NCBI GenBank assembly: GCA_039799225.1
Contig: JBDLTF010000001.1
Span: 42,488-106,487 of the forward strand
Length of the DNA: 64,000 bases
Reading direction: 5' to 3'
Origin: Candidatus Parcubacteria bacterium
GTDB taxonomy: Bacteria > Patescibacteriota > Minisyncoccia > Phycocordibacterales > PALSA-1337
This document shows positions 269 through 42,809 of the stretch, in pieces; the stretch's first letter is position 1, and each line of letters begins with the position of its first letter. Made by a program: the position numbers and the translations under genes. The notes beneath the pieces are model-generated. The model searched no databases. It saw only the letters and a list, made by a program, of their open reading frames with translations, and was not told the DNA's origin.

Positions 269-432
269 GGATGGGAGATCGCCCGCGACTCTCACTCGGC
301 TACCCGCCTCGTTCGGTCTGGGCACCGCCTCGCGGTTGCTCGTTGCTACTCGCAACATCGCTCCGGCGTTCGATTCTCCTCTCGCATGACACTCAAGTGT
401 CATGCTTACCTCAGTTAGTATACTAGATTTTG
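269..432 (-). repeat. tRNA-Gly-associated GC-rich element, copy 1. It contains a 118-nt core identical to copy 2, is preceded by the 10-nt mimic ggatgggaga of the tRNA 3' end, and ends in a 9-bp hairpin at 385-406.
   Basis: Direct sequence comparison with 1963-2128. The core at 273-390 equals 1972-2089 at 118/118. GC is about 62% against about 45% in the flanks. The segment GTTCGATTCTCC matches the tRNA T-arm. Confidence 0.6.
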
Positions 433-5292: not shown

Positions 5293-5348
5293 GGATGAAA
5301 TATAACATAAAAAGAGTCCTGGGGAGGACTCTTGTGAAAATAGTGAGC

Positions 5349-5918
5349 TTATCTAAAACTATTCAACGCCTCACTTGCAGAAAGTAGCTCTCCCACTCCA
5401 TCTTCCTCAGTGAAATGCCCTTTCGCATGTTCAATAATAATTTTTGGATTCAAAGCTTTTTCGAACGCTTCCTTATTCGCTTCTAACGGCACAGACTTGT
5501 CATTATCAGAGAAAATAGCTACGAACTTATCTGACATCTTGCGTATATTCATAAAATCGATCGGCCTTTCTATCCATGGACGAGCAATGTCTTGTTCTTC
5601 TTGAGTTTCGAGATTGGCGACCTGAAGCCACGGGGCGATCAAGATAAGTCCGCCAAGCTTTGATCCTTTATTCATCTCCAAATACCTGAGGATTGCCTGA
5701 CACCCAATACTGTGACCTATGAAATAGGTATCCTGATCGACATAATATACATTCTCCTCCAAGTGCTTGGTCCACGCGTCGATAGTCGGCACACCGGGGT
5801 TCGGCATATCAAGAACAGTTACCTCAAACCCTGCTTCTGTGCCAACTTTCCCCAGCCAAGAAATAAGAGGTTCTTTTGAACTACCATCCCAACCATGAAC
5901 AATTATAAGTCTTTTCAT
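5349..5918 (-). CDS. Alpha/beta hydrolase of the YdeN/RBBP9-like serine hydrolase family
   Basis: 189 aa. N-terminal IIVHGWDGS, nucleophile elbow GHSIGC, and a C-terminal His. Confidence 0.55.
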   Translation of the reverse strand: MKRLIIVHGWDGSSKEPLISWLGKVGTEAGFEVTVLDMPNPGVPTIDAWTKHLEENVYYVDQDTYFIGHSIGCQAILRYLEMNKGSKLGGLILIAPWLQVANLETQEEQDIARPWIERPIDFMNIRKMSDKFVAIFSDNDKSVPLEANKEAFEKALNPKIIIEHAKGHFTEEDGVGELLSASEALNSFR

Positions 5919-5960: not shown

Positions 5961-6926
5961 CTATCTCTTCTTCCCGTGAAACTGTTTGTGTATCCTCTTG
6001 AGCTCACTATCCGTCACGTGAGTATAGACCTGTGTAGTACTTATATCTGCATGGCCGAGAAGCATCTGCACAGAGCGTATGTCAGCACCATTCCCGAGGA
6101 GGTCAGTGGCGAAGCAGTGTCTGATGACGTGCGGCGTAACGCGCTTGGAAATTCCTGCTTTGATAGCGTATTTCTTAACAATACGTTCGATAGAGCGAGT
6201 CGTGAGGGGAGTATCACCTGGATCGAGTTCATCTTTTTTGCCTTTGCCTGACTTTTTTCCATTGGATTTGAGGGTGCGCTCACTGATTTCAACAAAAAGT
6301 GCTTCGCCCATGTCTTGGCGTGCATCGAGATACTTCTTGAGAGCGGCCTTAGCATCAGAGGAGAGGAAGACAGGGCGAACCTTGTCTCCTTTACCGCGAA
6401 TAGGGAATTCATCAGCAGTGAGGTCTATATCGCGGGTGAGGGAACAGAGCTCAGCTACACGAAGGCCCGTAGAGAAGAGGAGTTCGAGAATAGCAGCATC
6501 GCGCAGAGAAGCAGGGGAATCACCGTCAGGAGCATTGAGCAGGCGACGCAATTCATCGGAGGTAATAAGGTCAATCTGACGATGACCTACCTTGGCGAGC
6601 TCGATCATCTCAGGGGAGAGTGACTTCACGCCTCTACGAGCAAGGTATTTCAAGAATACACGCAGAGCAATGAGGTGATAATTCTGAGTGTTCTTCTTGA
6701 GGGTACGGACCTCGGTACGAGTCTTCCAGCCTGGTTGACGATTGAGCCAGAGGCGGAATTCACGCACTTTCTCTGCAGTAATGTCCTCGGGACCCTTAAT
6801 TTTGGCGAAATTCAAGAACTTAGTGATGAAGAAGTCGTAGTTTCGCACTGTTTTCACAGATCGACCCTTCTCGATCTCTATATATTCAAGGAATTGCTGT
6901 TTAAGGTCTCGGATATTATGCGACAT
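5961..6926 (-). CDS. xerD: Tyrosine site-specific recombinase XerC/XerD
   Basis: 321 aa. C-terminal catalytic motifs R..HCFATDLL, GHADISTTQVYTHV, and a conserved ARG-containing box. Confidence 0.8.
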   Translation of the reverse strand: MSHNIRDLKQQFLEYIEIEKGRSVKTVRNYDFFITKFLNFAKIKGPEDITAEKVREFRLWLNRQPGWKTRTEVRTLKKNTQNYHLIALRVFLKYLARRGVKSLSPEMIELAKVGHRQIDLITSDELRRLLNAPDGDSPASLRDAAILELLFSTGLRVAELCSLTRDIDLTADEFPIRGKGDKVRPVFLSSDAKAALKKYLDARQDMGEALFVEISERTLKSNGKKSGKGKKDELDPGDTPLTTRSIERIVKKYAIKAGISKRVTPHVIRHCFATDLLGNGADIRSVQMLLGHADISTTQVYTHVTDSELKRIHKQFHGKKR

Positions 6927-6978
6927 GGCTCTAGTATAGCTTATTTATACGCATTTCGATGTGGAGAATAGAGAATGC

Positions 6979-7012
6979 TTGACAAAAAATGTGGGTGTGC
7001 TATACTTATAGA
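6979..7012 (+). promoter_or_regulatory. Strong sigma70 promoter TTGACA-16nt-TGcTATACT (extended -10)
   Basis: Consensus -35, an extended -10 TG, and TATACT. Confidence 0.55.
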
Positions 7013-7014
7013 CG

Positions 7015-7171
7015 GTTAGTTATGTTGCACCTGCCAAGACGCGCCAAATCAGGCTCTAATAAAGCCGGAAAGGATCACATACTCACTCGGAACCTTCTGT
7101 CGTATTGAAGGCTAGTCGATAAACACCATGTTACCGCGCCACCTCTTCTAAGACTGTGGCGCGGTTTTTTA
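7015..7171 (+). ncRNA. Candidate small RNA or cis-regulatory leader of about 155 nt upstream of rpsO, ending in a strong intrinsic terminator (ccgcgccac...gtggcgcgg + TTTTTT, 7134-7171)
   Basis: Consensus promoter, no ORF, and a GC-rich terminator about 50 bp before the rpsO start. Possible SRP/4.5S-like motif GCCGGAAAGGA, but not confirmed. Confidence 0.35.
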
Positions 7172-7222
7172 TTTACCGAAATCCTTGCATTCCGACCCCA
7201 TTCATGCTACTATGTATAGGCA

Positions 7223-7492
7223 ATGTTAACTACACGACAAAAGACCAAGATTATCAAGGACATCGCCGTCCACGATAAGGATACTGGCTCAGCAGAGGTC
7301 CAGGTTGCTCTCTTGAGCAAGAGGATCGCTGAACTCACCGATCACCTCAAGAAGCACAAGAAGGACAACCACTCACGCCGCGGACTCCTCGGTATGGTTG
7401 CTGATCGCCAGACACATCTCGTCTATCTCAAGAAGAACCACCCTCGCCGCTACTCGGCAGTCCTCAAGAAGTTGGATCTCAAGAAGAAATAA
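7223..7492 (+). CDS. rpsO: 30S ribosomal protein S15
   Basis: 89 aa. LTDHLKKHKKDNHSRRGLL..MV..R..LL.YL is the canonical S15 signature. Confidence 0.9.
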   Translation: MLTTRQKTKIIKDIAVHDKDTGSAEVQVALLSKRIAELTDHLKKHKKDNHSRRGLLGMVADRQTHLVYLKKNHPRRYSAVLKKLDLKKK

Positions 7493-7617
7493 ACTAGACA
7501 AGGCGCCGCAAGGCGTTTCTTGTTATACTAGTCTCTAGTTACGCATTTTAATATTTAGTTAATCCTGTTTAAGGTTTATTTGTGCACTTTTGCATTTTTA
7601 GCTTTGAACTTTTACAT

Positions 7618-8136
7618 ATGTCAGTTATAAAACACAAAGAACAACGCGTCGGTATATTTATCGATGCACAAAACCTCTATCACAGCGGTCGCAATCTCTA
7701 TCATTCAAAGGTAAATTTCGGCGCTATCGTCAAAGAAGCACTCGATGGGCGCAAGCTTGTCCGTGCGGTCGCCTACGTTATTGCCACCGAATCAGGTGAA
7801 GAAACAAGCTTTTTCGAAGCTCTCGAGAAGATGGGTATTGAAACCAAGGTCAAAGACCTTCAAATCTTCAGCTCAGGCGCCAAAAAGGCGGACTGGGACG
7901 TCGGTATGGCTATCGACGCAGTGAAGCTCTCACCAAAGCTCGATGCAGTTATCCTCGTTACCGGTGACGGCGACTTCTGTCCGCTCGTCGAGTATCTTCA
8001 GATGAATCAGGGTTGCCAAGTCGAGGTTGTCTCGTTCGGCAAGTCTACTTCTGCGAAGCTCATCGAGGTATCAGATCACTTCATGGACCTCGACCAGGGT
8101 TCAGGAAAGTATCTCCTCAGAATGGGGAAGAGGTAG
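7618..8136 (+). CDS. NYN-domain (LabA/DUF88-like) protein, a putative RNase, inserted between rpsO and pnp
   Basis: Motifs VGIFIDAQNLYHS, AVILVTGDGDFCPLV. The start is probably the internal ATG at 7618 (MSVIKHK...) rather than 7582. Confidence 0.65.
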   Translation: MSVIKHKEQRVGIFIDAQNLYHSGRNLYHSKVNFGAIVKEALDGRKLVRAVAYVIATESGEETSFFEALEKMGIETKVKDLQIFSSGAKKADWDVGMAIDAVKLSPKLDAVILVTGDGDFCPLVEYLQMNQGCQVEVVSFGKSTSAKLIEVSDHFMDLDQGSGKYLLRMGKR

Positions 8137-8272: not shown

Positions 8273-10483
8273 ATGAATAAGAAAGAATACTCGATCGAGC
8301 TCGGCGGCAAGACGCTCACAGCGGAATTCAATGATCTCGCGGAGAATGCTGATGGATCCGTCATGGTCCGCTATGGCAACACCGTTGTGCTCGCTACTGC
8401 AGTCATGGGCAAACTGAAGGAAGGTGACTTCTTCCCGCTCACTGTCGACTATGAGGAGCGCTTCTACGCAACTGGAAAAATTCTCGGCTCACGATTTGTT
8501 CGCAGGGAAGGGAGGCCATCGACCGAAGCGATTCTTTCTGGTCGCATTGTTGACCGCACTATCCGTCCTCTTTTCAATCAGCACATGCGCAATGAGGTGC
8601 AGGTCATCATTACAACGCTCTCAATAGATCAGGATGATCCTGATGTAGTCTCCGTTATCGCCACATCACTTGCACTGGGAACTTCAAATATTCCTTGGAA
8701 TGGTCCTGTCTCTGCAGTTCGCGTCGCACGTGATGGTAAATGGCTCATCAATCCTGATTTCAAGGCGCGCGAAGAAGCAGGAGTCGTACTCGAGATGGTC
8801 GCGTGTGGAAAAGATGGCACAATCAACATGATTGAGGTCGCTTCGAAAGAAGTCGACGAAGAATCTATGAATGAAGGTCTTGCCAAAGCTTCAGCTGAGA
8901 TCGAGAAGATTCAAGCATGGCAAAAGAAGATCATTGCGGAAATCGGCAAACCCAAGACTGAAGTACAGCTTCCTGAAGCTACACCAGGCACAAAAGAGTT
9001 GTTTCACGCTGAGATTGAGCCAAAATTGGCACAGTATGTCATGAGCTCGACGCCAGGACACAAGAAGATCAATGAGATTAACAAGATGTGGACCGACCTC
9101 TTCACTGAAAAAATCCCTGCGGGCAACCATGCAATGGCACAAGAGGTATTCGAGGAAGCTGTTAATGATCTTCTACATACTGAAGCAATAGAGAACGGAA
9201 AACGCGCCGATGGTCGTGGTATGGATGATGTTCGCTCACTCTTCGCACAGGCAGGTGGTGTTTCACCAATTCTTCACGGATCCGGTATCTTCTACCGTGG
9301 AGGTACTCACATTCTCTCAACACTCACACTCGGTAGTCCCGGAGATGCACAAGTCATCGATGCACTCATCGAGCACGAAGATAAGCGCTTCATGCACCAC
9401 TACAATTTCCCGCCATTCTCTACCGGCGAGACAGGTAGAGTTGGTGGGACCAATCGTCGCATGATCGGACATGGAGCTCTCGCTGAGAAAGCGCTCTTGC
9501 CAATTATTCCTGCAAAAGATGTCTTCCCGTATACCATTCGTCTCGTCTCAGAAGCGATGTCATCGAATGGATCAACTTCGATGGGTTCAGTCTGCGGATC
9601 GACGCTCGCGCTCATGGATGGGGGAGTTCCTATCAAAGCTCCGGTTGCAGGAATTGCGAGCGGCCTTATGATGCGCCCGAAAAAAGGCGGGCAATCATTC
9701 TTGAAGGGTTTACTCGGTGGTGCAGATTATGAATACAAAGTCCTCACTGATATTCAGGGACCAGAAGATCACCACGGCGACATGGATTTCAAAGTCGCAG
9801 GAACTCGCGAGGGAATTACGGCCGTGCAGATGGATGTGAAGGTTGGCGGCATTCCGCTCAAAGTTATTTCTGAAGCATTTGAAAAGGCCAAGGTTGCACG
9901 CTTCAAGATTCTCGATGTTATCGAGAAGGCCATAGCCACACCACGCACGAAGATATCTCCGAATGCGCCCGAAATTATTGTCATGAAGGTGAAGCCTGAC
10001 CAAATCGGCCTTGTTATTGGTTCAGGAGGAAAAACTATCAATGAGATTCGCGACGTCACACATGTCGAAGACATCACTATTGAAGACGATGGATCTATCT
10101 TCATTACTGGCAAGAATGAGACCGCTGCAAAAGCAAAAGAGATTATCTACAACATGACCCGCGAATATATGCCGGGGGAGAAATTCGAAGGGGAAGTGAC
10201 GCGTCTCATGGAATTTGGCGCATTCGTGAAAATCGGCCCGAATGCAGAAGGACTTGTACATGTATCGGAAATGGCTCCATTCCGCGTCGAGAATGTCGAA
10301 ACATACGTGAAAGAAGGTGACAAAGTTCCTGTCGTCGTCAAAGAAGTCGACGAGAAAGGACGTCTCAACCTCTCAATCAAGGCGGCAAATCCTGATTTCT
10401 TCACCAAGAAAGAAGAAGTCCCCAAGCCACCTCGACCACCGCATGCCGCAGGAGGACACCGTGGACCACATAAGAGATTCTAA
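8273..10483 (+). CDS. pnp: Polynucleotide phosphorylase (PNPase)
   Basis: 736 aa. Two RNase PH-like domains, then KH (GKTINEI) and S1 (GEVTRLMEFGAFV) domains. Confidence 0.9.
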   Translation: MNKKEYSIELGGKTLTAEFNDLAENADGSVMVRYGNTVVLATAVMGKLKEGDFFPLTVDYEERFYATGKILGSRFVRREGRPSTEAILSGRIVDRTIRPLFNQHMRNEVQVIITTLSIDQDDPDVVSVIATSLALGTSNIPWNGPVSAVRVARDGKWLINPDFKAREEAGVVLEMVACGKDGTINMIEVASKEVDEESMNEGLAKASAEIEKIQAWQKKIIAEIGKPKTEVQLPEATPGTKELFHAEIEPKLAQYVMSSTPGHKKINEINKMWTDLFTEKIPAGNHAMAQEVFEEAVNDLLHTEAIENGKRADGRGMDDVRSLFAQAGGVSPILHGSGIFYRGGTHILSTLTLGSPGDAQVIDALIEHEDKRFMHHYNFPPFSTGETGRVGGTNRRMIGHGALAEKALLPIIPAKDVFPYTIRLVSEAMSSNGSTSMGSVCGSTLALMDGGVPIKAPVAGIASGLMMRPKKGGQSFLKGLLGGADYEYKVLTDIQGPEDHHGDMDFKVAGTREGITAVQMDVKVGGIPLKVISEAFEKAKVARFKILDVIEKAIATPRTKISPNAPEIIVMKVKPDQIGLVIGSGGKTINEIRDVTHVEDITIEDDGSIFITGKNETAAKAKEIIYNMTREYMPGEKFEGEVTRLMEFGAFVKIGPNAEGLVHVSEMAPFRVENVETYVKEGDKVPVVVKEVDEKGRLNLSIKAANPDFFTKKEEVPKPPRPPHAAGGHRGPHKRF

Positions 10484-41078: not shown

Positions 41079-42089
41079 TCATAACAACTTCATCGCACCC
41101 TTTTCTCCAAGATGCGCATATGCCTTATCTGTTGCGGTGCGTCCTCTCGGTGTTCTTTCGAGCAAACCAAGTTGAATCAGATACGGTTCGTACACTTCTT
41201 CGACAGTCGCTTGTTCCTCAGAGAGTGCTGCGGCAATAGTGCCAAGACCGACTGGTCCGCCGCCAAATTTATTTATAATCACTTTCAATATCTCACGATC
41301 AGCCGCGGTAAGGCCGAGTGTGTCGACGCCGAGCATGGTGAGAGCCTTCTCGACCACCTCTTTCGTAAGGGAAGTCTTGTGGATCTGCGCATAGTCGCGA
41401 CACCTCTTGAGATGGTAGTTGGCTGTACGGGGAGTGAAGCGTGAGCGGATAGCAATTTCGGTCACTGCATCGTCATGAATCTCAATGTCGAGAATTTTCG
41501 CAGACCTCTTGATGATCTTGGCGATTTCATCATCAGTGTAAAATTCAAGCTTGAACACTCCTCCAGAGAAGCGGGAGCGCAAAGGTGCGGAAATCATAGC
41601 TATCCTTGTGGTTGCGGCGATGAGGGTAAATGGTGGGAGGTCGAGCTGGATAGTCCTTGCTGATGGCCCTTTGCCTATGATAATATCGAGCGTCCCGGAC
41701 TCCATGGCAGGGTAGAGGACTTCTTCGATAGCTTTGTTCAATCGATGAATCTCATCGATGAAGAGAATGTCGCCTGAAGAGAGGTTTGTGACGATAGAGG
41801 CAAGGTCACCAACTTTCAAGATCGCAGGACCCGAAGTCACCTTCATTTGAGAGCCCGTTTCCTTGGCTATAAGGTGCGCCAGAGTCGTTTTACCAAGACC
41901 TGGTGGGCCATAGAAGAGAATGTGTTCAGGAGGATGTTTACGCTCTTGGGCAGCAGTCAGGAGGATATGGAGGTTATCCTTGATGTTCTTCTGGCCTATA
42001 TACTCATCCCAACGTCCAGGACGGAGAGTTTGATCGAGGAATCCAGCATCTTTCTCGACTTCAGGGGTATTTGGAGGGGGTATTGACAT
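41079..42089 (-). CDS. ruvB: Holliday junction branch-migration ATPase RuvB
   Basis: 336 aa. Walker A GPPGLGKTTLA. Confidence 0.9.
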   Translation of the reverse strand: MSIPPPNTPEVEKDAGFLDQTLRPGRWDEYIGQKNIKDNLHILLTAAQERKHPPEHILFYGPPGLGKTTLAHLIAKETGSQMKVTSGPAILKVGDLASIVTNLSSGDILFIDEIHRLNKAIEEVLYPAMESGTLDIIIGKGPSARTIQLDLPPFTLIAATTRIAMISAPLRSRFSGGVFKLEFYTDDEIAKIIKRSAKILDIEIHDDAVTEIAIRSRFTPRTANYHLKRCRDYAQIHKTSLTKEVVEKALTMLGVDTLGLTAADREILKVIINKFGGGPVGLGTIAAALSEEQATVEEVYEPYLIQLGLLERTPRGRTATDKAYAHLGEKGAMKLL

Positions 42090-42126
42090 TTTTGATAGGG
42101 TATGCTAAGATACTCTTGAAGTCATA

Positions 42127-42470
42127 TAGGTAGTGTATAATATACATATCAGGAATGCGAACGACAGGTGTCGCATTTTTCTATGTCCACACTAGCGATA
42201 GACATGCCCATTTCGAACTCGTGAACCTCTAAGCAATGGCCTTCCCAGGTTTGGGTATAGTGCTAAGGACATTTTGGTTGCAATGCTTGCATTGCGTACT
42301 GAAATTATCCTCGGGACTCTACCTCGCTTGGCGCATCATGCGCCGAGATATTGCTTAGAGATTCTCTAGTTTGAAGAGATTGTTCTACTGAACATCCTAC
42401 TCCTCGACCCGTCTAGAAATCAATGGGGAAAAGTTCCAGCGCACGCCTTTGACAGGGAAGTCAAAGGCGT
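42127..42470 (+). ncRNA. Candidate plus-strand noncoding RNA of about 340 nt, located between two minus-strand genes
   Basis: Extended -10 promoter gtgTATAAT at about 42128-42140. No ORF above 20 aa. Ends in a plus-strand intrinsic terminator cgcctttgac-aggga-agtcaaaggcg + tttt at about 42434-42465. Confidence 0.3.
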
Positions 42471-42485
42471 TTTCGCTACATGAGA

Positions 42486-42809
42486 CTAACGAAGTTTGGT
42501 TCCAGACTTACGGAGACCTTCTTGGAACGAATGTTGTGCATTAGTGAGATCGGATTGAGCTTTGAGTTTTGCACGCTGAATTTCAGCAATCTTTGCTTTG
42601 AGCTTCGGTATATCTGATTCGGTGGCGTAGAGTTCATGTCTATCAATTTCAACCTTCTTCTGCAATTGAGGAATTTCTTGTTTCAACTGCGCCGCTTTTG
42701 CTTCATGCGCACGGAGCTCTTCTTGGATTGAAGTCAATTCATGAATCTCTTCTTTTATCTGGTTTTGAAGCTGCTGAACCATTTCTGTAACATTCTTTGG
42801 ATTATTCAT
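42486..42809 (-). CDS. Coiled-coil protein immediately downstream of pilB
   Basis: 107 aa, heptad-rich, 12-nt gap from the PilB stop. Confidence 0.45.
   Translation of the reverse strand: MNNPKNVTEMVQQLQNQIKEEIHELTSIQEELRAHEAKAAQLKQEIPQLQKKVEIDRHELYATESDIPKLKAKIAEIQRAKLKAQSDLTNAQHSFQEGLRKSGTKLR

Follow-up and report, generated by a model that had tools for sequence, protein, structure and literature searches.

A truncated transcription unit between xer and rpsO in a Parcubacteria genome, probably an internally deleted descendant of a small-ORF mRNA

The locus treated here is a spacer of 296 nt between two divergent genes, one coding for a tyrosine recombinase of the XerD/XerA type (xer), the other for ribosomal protein S15 (rpsO). 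The window, by which we mean the whole stretch of 64,000 nt that was analysed, has in this spacer a promoter of consensus type, a stretch with two hairpins and an intrinsic terminator, all directed towards rpsO, and after these a second promoter just in front of rpsO. The coordinates are presented in Table 1. On the far side of rpsO an NYN-domain protein gene (7582-8136, plus strand; 98% amino acid identity with the related loci L082 and L084) lies before pnp, which codes for polynucleotide phosphorylase (8273-10483). The classic rpsO-pnp pair is thus interrupted in this lineage by a gene for a putative RNase-fold (NYN) protein. The xer gene looks leaderless, like rpsO (see below): a minus-strand TATACT at 6938-6933 ends 6 nt before its ATG (region 6927-6940), and a TATACT/TACAAT-like box is found at the same position in relatives.

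Table 1. Features of the xer-rpsO spacer and its flanking genes (positions in the window)
Feature	Position	Strand	Basis
xer, divergent XerD/XerA-like tyrosine recombinase	5961..6926	-	NCBIfam XerD 232.6 bits, XerA 225.5 bits (above cut-off 220)
Unit promoter, TTGACA-16-TGcTATACT, extended -10 at 6998-7006	6979..7006	+	consensus scan; conserved in L082, L084 and L162
5' transcript remnant: degenerate 5' arm of ancestral stem-loop, ACGGTTAGTTATGTT, against ACGAATTGATGATCTTT in relatives	7012..7026	+	alignments
Deletion junction	7022..7035	+	MAFFT alignments; nhmmer profile
Hairpin A, TCAGGCT / loop CTAATAA / AGCCGGA	7049..7069	+	two compensatory pairs, G-C<->A-U and C-G<->U-A (RNAalifold, four sequences)
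Single-stranded SD-like GGAAAGGA, no start codon after it in window or relatives	7067..7074	+	alignments; segment likened to SRP domain IV
Most conserved block, with hairpin B and tail CTAGTCGATAAACACCAT	7087..7129	+	33 of 43 columns invariant, four sequences
Hairpin B, CCTTC 7093-7097 / GAAGG 7107-7111	7093..7111	+	one compensatory C-G<->G-C
Intrinsic terminator, 10-bp stem 7133-7142 / 7156-7165, 13-nt loop, T6 7165-7170	7133..7170	+	RNAfold
rpsO promoter, TTGCAT 7185-7190, 17-nt spacer, TGcTACTAT 7205-7213, ending 9 nt before ATG	7185..7213	+	
rpsO, ribosomal protein S15, 89 aa	7223..7492	+	Pfam Ribosomal_S15 recorded for the identical gene in L081

The unit begins with TTGACA at 6979-6984, followed by a 16-nt spacer which carries a TG at 6998-6999 and by TATACT at 7001-7006. 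The initial annotation had called this promoter near-perfect, and the consensus scan agrees: it scores 11 out of 12 plus the TG and is the sole site of such quality between 5000 and 9000. The combination of TTGACA with TGnTAnnnT occurs only three times in the 64-kb window, both strands included, and the unit promoter is one of the three. The strong terminator with its six T's ahead of rpsO is also there as described, with a stem one pair longer than the 9 bp first given: ACCGCGCCAC pairs with GTGGCGCGGT by eight G-C and two A-U pairs, and 52 nt separate the end of the T run from the rpsO ATG at 7223. RNAfold gives -19.1 kcal/mol over the 45 nt ahead of the T run, hairpin included. A simple hairpin scan missed the terminator because the loop is longer than the limit of 8 nt used in that scan. 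Both signals are more than chance matches, since the promoter position recurs in relatives and the pairing of the terminator stem is kept by compensatory change. In most of the 20 related loci with a unit, a consensus promoter stands at a distance of 37-41 nt from the xer ATG (53 nt in the window), and the terminators of L082 and L162 show a compensatory C-G<->U-A change (RNAalifold, four sequences).

Placed from the position of the -10 box, the predicted RNA starts at about 7012-7014 and runs to about 7170, i.e., roughly 159 nt from 7012. Its folding energy as a whole is not exceptional (z = -1.44), and the minimum free energy fold consists of several hairpins plus the terminator. The stretch was first described as free of ORFs, which is essentially true: a mechanical ORF of 39 codons (6989..7108) begins upstream of the -10 box, and the ATG inside it at 7023 leaves 28 codons with neither an SD site nor a family match. 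From these signals we infer that a strong promoter and a strong terminator delimit an independent transcription unit at 6979-7170, which is transcribed and terminated as predicted and should yield an abundant RNA of about 159 nt.

The two other consensus promoters of the window were also looked at. One, TTGACA-17-TGCTAAGAT at 42083-42111 (plus strand), points into an ORF-free spacer of about 400 nt (42083-42485) which is flanked by minus-strand ORFs (41079..42089 and 42486..42809) and has, on the plus strand, a hairpin followed by T5 at about 42155-42178 and a hairpin followed by T4 at about 42446-42474; Rfam gave no match in this spacer, neither at the gathering threshold nor at E<=5. The other, TTGACA-16-TGATACCCT, is on the minus strand (region 15924-15770) and is followed by a small hairpin, GGCCTTGTTAAGCC, and by about 150 nt with no obvious ORF before the next gene.

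Related loci were collected in two ways. An S15 protein query gave 80 loci from metagenome-assembled genomes of Patescibacteria (Paceibacteria/Taylorbacteria-like), and closer relatives came from a metagenome scan with the Xer protein, except for L162, which was found through a peptide match (P0003). L081, which stems from the sequencing run SRR30127145, is identical to the window over the unit region. The divergent xer-rpsO pair is conserved throughout the group, with 111 loci once redundancy is removed. In 59 of these the spacer is at most 140 nt, in 20 it holds a unit with a strict consensus promoter, and in the remaining 32 it holds something else, either protein genes or decayed sequence. 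Close relatives of the window are among those with empty spacers: L001 (Xer 87%), which has a spacer of 108 nt and no unit, as well as L002, L003, L085 and L090. Other deletions are found as well: L031, for instance, lacks the first of the units which are present in L035. A blastn search with the window unit against the first 80 loci returned the promoter boxes only.

The long spacers suggest that this stretch is a general hotspot of insertion and turnover in the group. Spacers of 0.4-2.3 kb were seen in L014, L037, L063, L067, L073, L074, L078, L111, L141, L145 and L157, and those from the first search (L014 to L078) contain unrelated ORFs of 70-270 codons. L035 has a second, different small-ORF unit at about 337-594 of the transcript, with 40 codons (MKT...NSGIFAG), which L031 shares at 81% nucleotide identity; there is thus room in the spacer for more than one micro-gene. 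In L082 and L083 the stretch from the xer start to the unit promoter is lengthened by two insertions (about 40 and 32 nt), within the first 120 nt or so after the xer ATG, which are absent from the window, L084 and L162. An integron-like or mobile cassette carried beside the tyrosine recombinase was considered and rejected: the recombinase scores as the housekeeping XerD/XerA type, the vertical homology of the units tracks relatedness (L082-L084-L162-window, L023-L026, L031-L035, L051-L053), and inspection of the spacer alignments by eye gave no attC-like or repeat boundaries.

The rpsO gene has a promoter of its own. Of 129 related loci, 121 have an extended -10 box (TGnTAnnnT) whose end lies 6-10 nt ahead of the rpsO ATG, and 72 of these have it at exactly 9 nt, as does the window. 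A -35 box of TTGC type stands about 17 nt ahead of the extended -10 in the loci listed, and the extended -10 is found in all the loci with a spacer so short that nothing else would fit. Because the box ends so close to the start codon, the rpsO mRNA is predicted to be essentially leaderless and would not include the RNA of the window unit.

The initial annotation had offered two readings of the spacer, a small RNA or a leader. The stand-alone unit with its strong promoter and terminator agrees with the first, and the second does not hold. As a transcription-attenuation leader, the strong upstream promoter would drive rpsO, and binding of S15 would favour the terminator. The unit does adjoin rpsO on the same strand, the terminator is close to the gene, and the S15 regulators on record are structurally diverse (Slinger et al. 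2014, PMC4137082). However, the same paper describes the known regulators as portions of the rpsO mRNA which encompass its ribosome-binding site (PMC4137082), and the window unit lies outside the rpsO 5' UTR, with both the terminator and the rpsO promoter in between. With a promoter after the terminator, as in nearly all the loci just mentioned, rpsO has no 5' UTR to carry a regulator and its mRNA no ribosome-binding region to occlude, and this leaves the leader and attenuator reading unsupported. It should be noted that the unit does not co-occur with rpsO: the 59 of 111 loci with the shortest spacers have only the rpsO promoter there. Nor is an alternative antiterminator structure conserved, no S15 model is among the Rfam matches with E<=10 for 6900-7300, and the homologous unit of the relatives is a small-ORF mRNA (see below). 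The attenuation-leader reading is thereby largely refuted, and we regard it as very improbable; the window unit most likely has no cis role for rpsO.

Known RNA families were searched for at several levels. The Rfam scan of the whole window at the gathering threshold found tRNAs only. For 6900-7300 even the relaxed scan (E<=10), which covers the check proposed at the outset for SRP, 6S and S15-leader models, returned chance matches to the terminator hairpin and none of these families. A gathering-threshold scan of 20 loci with long spacers gave nothing, ARAGORN found neither tRNA nor tmRNA genes in 27 loci, and a scan of 10 loci at E<=1 gave only sub-threshold hammerhead matches far from the spacer. 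These latter resemble the type III hammerhead (RF00008) with 39.8, 34.8 and 29.7 bits (gathering score 48.5; E = 4e-5 to 0.03), and they lie at 5384-5438 (minus) and 333-387 (plus) in L084 and at 5332-5407 (minus) in L082. The minus-strand sites are about 1.9 kb past the xer stop, the plus-strand site of L084 is on the rpsO side, and no counterpart was found in the window between 2400 and 11000. A degenerate rRNA fragment was also tried as an identity, as UUGAUCCUUG resembles the 5' end of 16S rRNA, and rejected, as the motif is an arm of a local hairpin.

A 4.5S (SRP) RNA had been mentioned as possible on account of the segment GCCGGAAAGGA, which is indeed present, at 7064-7074. Taken more broadly, the RNA could be a divergent housekeeping RNA (SRP/4.5S, 6S or similar) which the Rfam models miss in this phylum; the consensus promoter, the terminator, a length in the range of 6S and 4.5S RNA and this very segment would fit. 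Against this, the GGAA is not conserved (CCAGAAAGG in L084), and since the GCC ahead of it is the 3' arm of a hairpin in the alignment, GCCGGAAAGGA does not form a closed tetraloop; the SD-like part is single-stranded on the 3' side of hairpin A. No SRP, 6S or other covariance model matches at E<=10, the fold has several hairpins and is not rod-like as for 6S RNA, the locus lacks the unit in most relatives, close ones included, and the homologues are three times longer and have an ORF. The SRP suggestion is not supported, and a housekeeping RNA of any such kind is very improbable. For annotation this means that the ORF-free stretch should not be labelled S15 leader, SRP RNA or 6S RNA.

The nearest relatives which carry a unit are L082/L083 (Xer 89% amino acid identity by tblastn, 91% in a global alignment), L162 (88%) and L084 (84%). 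Their spacers are much longer than that of the window (618 nt in L082/L083, 538 nt in L162 and 540 nt in L084), and they contain a version of the unit of 410-470 nt. This full-length form consists of the promoter, a 5' stem-loop, an SD site (GAAAGG), an ORF of 39-43 codons beginning MN[SG]PPN, a 3' UTR with two hairpins and the terminator; at its 5' end the transcript has a long composite hairpin based on the conserved motif (A/G)UUGAUC. For convenience we call the class the Xer-rpsO spacer small-ORF unit of Paceibacteria, a class defined in this analysis and not a published family.

The case for coding consists of three distinct close sequences and a short N-terminal motif in distant loci. 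In L082 and L162 the ORF has 39 codons and a common stop, the peptides are 56% identical and dN/dS is about 0.5; L084 has an in-frame extension of 12 nt. The arrangement SD-N4-13-ATG-(1-3 codons)-CCN-CCN is found in 11 of 18 promoter-bearing units; in 500 dinucleotide shuffles it came up 0.45 times on average and 4 times at most. Both proline codons vary freely at their third positions, and the small residue before them changes from one serine codon family to another. Such variation is a sign that selection acts on the peptide start, M-N-[S/A/G]-P-P-[N/K]. Pairing of the conserved CCNCC with an anti-SD sequence was considered as its cause; with third positions that vary freely, Pro-Pro codons are the preferred explanation. 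Beyond this start the ORF, like the 3' part, diverges rapidly among the more distant loci, and the distance from ORF to terminator varies from about 10 to 240 nt in related units. The peptides belong to no Pfam or NCBIfam family; a word-index search found only the L082-type peptide itself, and an exhaustive HMMER search added one homologue, P0003, which led to L162. The unit family as such is described neither in Rfam, Pfam and NCBIfam nor in the Patescibacteria small-RNA literature searched.

When the window is aligned with L082, L084 and L162 (MAFFT), the promoter, the last 130 nt or so of the transcript, the terminator and the rpsO promoter are in common, and about 285 nt of the relatives are missing from the window, comprising the 3' arm of the 5' stem-loop, the SD site and the whole ORF of 39-43 codons. 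When the three full-length spacers are made into an nhmmer profile, the window matches it at model positions 1-81 (E = 1e-11) and 366-544 (E = 1.5e-39) and nowhere else. The distant loci L023, L004 and L026 match the profile beyond the promoter and have the same architecture, from which it follows that the long form came first and that the window form is derived.

Compared with the class as a whole, the window has the consensus promoter next to the xer start and directed towards rpsO, and its 3' UTR and terminator are homologous to those of the relatives (pairwise identity 74-79%). Of the (A/G)UUGAUC stem-loop there is only a degenerate 5' arm, and the SD site and the M-N-x-P-P ORF are absent. 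The window unit is for this reason a truncated derivative and not an intact member. The initial annotation would have counted a lack of conservation in relatives as a refutation of its proposal, and this is half the case: conservation extends to the promoter and the 3' two-thirds of the sequence, and to a narrow subclade only; the homologous unit there is three times longer and contains an ORF. By kind, the spacer unit is an ordinary lineage-specific small-ORF transcript, of which the window has a truncated copy.

We consider it probable, with a good margin for error, that the structure and evolution of the window unit are explained by its being an internally deleted descendant of a small-ORF mRNA. 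The ancestor would have been an mRNA of 410-470 nt filling the spacer between the Xer recombinase and rpsO, as in the nearest relatives. A deletion of about 285 nt took the stem-loop and the entire ORF and fused the first 15 nt or so of the transcript to the 3' UTR; the sequences themselves show this deletion, as they show the anatomy, the homology, the separate promoter of rpsO and the patchy distribution. The sigma-70-type consensus promoter would still start an RNA at 7012-7014, presumably firing constitutively and strongly, and the strong intrinsic terminator would end it near 7170, while rpsO would be transcribed separately and essentially leaderless. The RNA made today would then be the old 3' UTR, i.e., hairpin A, the SD-like GGAAAGGA and hairpin B in the 43-nt block, plus the terminator.

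The deletion could also have created a new gene, if the 28 codons from the ATG at 7023 to the TGA at 7108 (MLHLPRRAKSGSNKAGKDHILTRNLLSY) were translated. This ORF exists as the in-frame part of 6989..7108, its ATG is about 10 nt from the predicted start site, and leaderless or near-leaderless mRNAs appear to be common in the lineage. It is, however, a fusion product with no counterpart in the relatives, where the frame differs and is closed, and the missing SD site and family match already mentioned count against it as well. Such a peptide is very hard to believe in.

What the deletion left behind is best called a stump: we infer that it is the remnant of a gene and either non-functional or at most endowed with the function of the old 3' UTR module. 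The number of window-specific substitutions in the retained module is 9, against 2, 10 and 8 specific to the three relatives, and there are none in the block 7087-7129. Window-specific substitutions are not in excess, so that relaxed constraint does not show; the deletion may be recent, or else the module may still be of use and under selection. Any estimate of the strength of constraint is uncertain because identity at four-fold sites differs between the neighbouring genes, 0.45-0.51 in xer versus 0.65-0.79 in the NYN gene adjoining rpsO.

The last alternative is that the stump is a functional trans-acting sRNA, in which the 3' UTR module acts alone and is now the primary transcript of a strong promoter. 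Hairpins A and B, the single-stranded tail CUAGUCGAUAAACACC and the terminator are conserved, the 43-nt block is free of changes specific to the window, and substitutions unique to the window are no commoner in the module than those of relatives with an intact unit. In each of the three hairpins compensatory changes preserve the pairing, and promoter and terminator are intact. On the other hand, a recent deletion could alone explain this conservation, the z of the whole RNA is modest, and the module is not recognisable outside the narrow subclade, within which L001 has lost the unit entirely. A target search in the 64-kb window gave nothing, the complement of the conserved tail matching only itself. 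From the sequences at hand a functional sRNA appears unlikely, although clearly less so than the leader, the housekeeping RNA or the 28-codon peptide.

In the divergent Xer-rpsO spacer of Paceibacteria, small genes with a presumably strong expression have repeatedly been gained, have decayed and have been lost. The natural alleles, i.e., full, ORF-deleted and empty, could help to find out whether it is the peptide or the RNA through which such micro-genes act, in organisms for which experimental genetics hardly exists. The locus is also further evidence for the frequency of consensus extended -10 promoters and leaderless mRNAs in the group. A bolder proposal, to which we give a rather low probability, is that these units form a new Paceibacteria family, strongly promoted and fast-evolving, with a 5' stem-loop and a stall-prone MNxPP(N/K) ORF, of which the window copy would be an ORF-less allele with 7087-7129 still serving as regulatory RNA. 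If this were true the MNxPP family could be a small protein, a dual-function RNA or a sensor of translation speed (proline/EF-P).

It remains to compare the unit with known systems. Like the S15 leaders (the E. coli pseudoknot, RF00114, and the Geobacillus, Thermus and Rhizobiales types) it lies just upstream of rpsO on the same strand and has hairpins. Unlike them it is cut off from a leaderless rpsO by a terminator and a second promoter, and it is missing from most relatives. It is similar to SRP (4.5S) and 6S RNA in size and in having a strong promoter, a terminator and a segment with GGAA; in contrast to these RNAs it has no covariance-model match at E<=10 and is conserved neither at the locus nor in sequence.

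Small-ORF mRNAs and dual-function sRNAs such as SgrS/SgrT, RNAIII/hld and SR1/SR1P are closer to the full-length relatives, which are likewise short, strongly promoted and terminator-bounded, with a short ORF between a structured 5' end and a structured 3' part. However, the spacer units have no sequence or family relation to them, and the window copy has no ORF. The mgtP and mgtL leader peptides of Salmonella are rich in proline codons and sense the speed of translation, and motifs of the M-N-x-P-P type are known to stall ribosomes without EF-P. The related units have a similarly proline-rich start, M-N-x-P-P-(N/K/W/P), in an ORF upstream of an intrinsic terminator. In the spacer units, by contrast, the distance from ORF to terminator is variable, no alternative pairing is conserved and the downstream gene has its own promoter, and again the window copy is ORF-less.

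Regulatory sRNAs can also be derived from 3' UTRs, for instance CpxQ, SroC and DapZ. The window unit is likewise the 3' UTR of an mRNA with its terminator and has a conserved single-stranded stretch before that terminator, but here the 3' UTR has been joined to a promoter by a genomic deletion and not by processing or an internal promoter.
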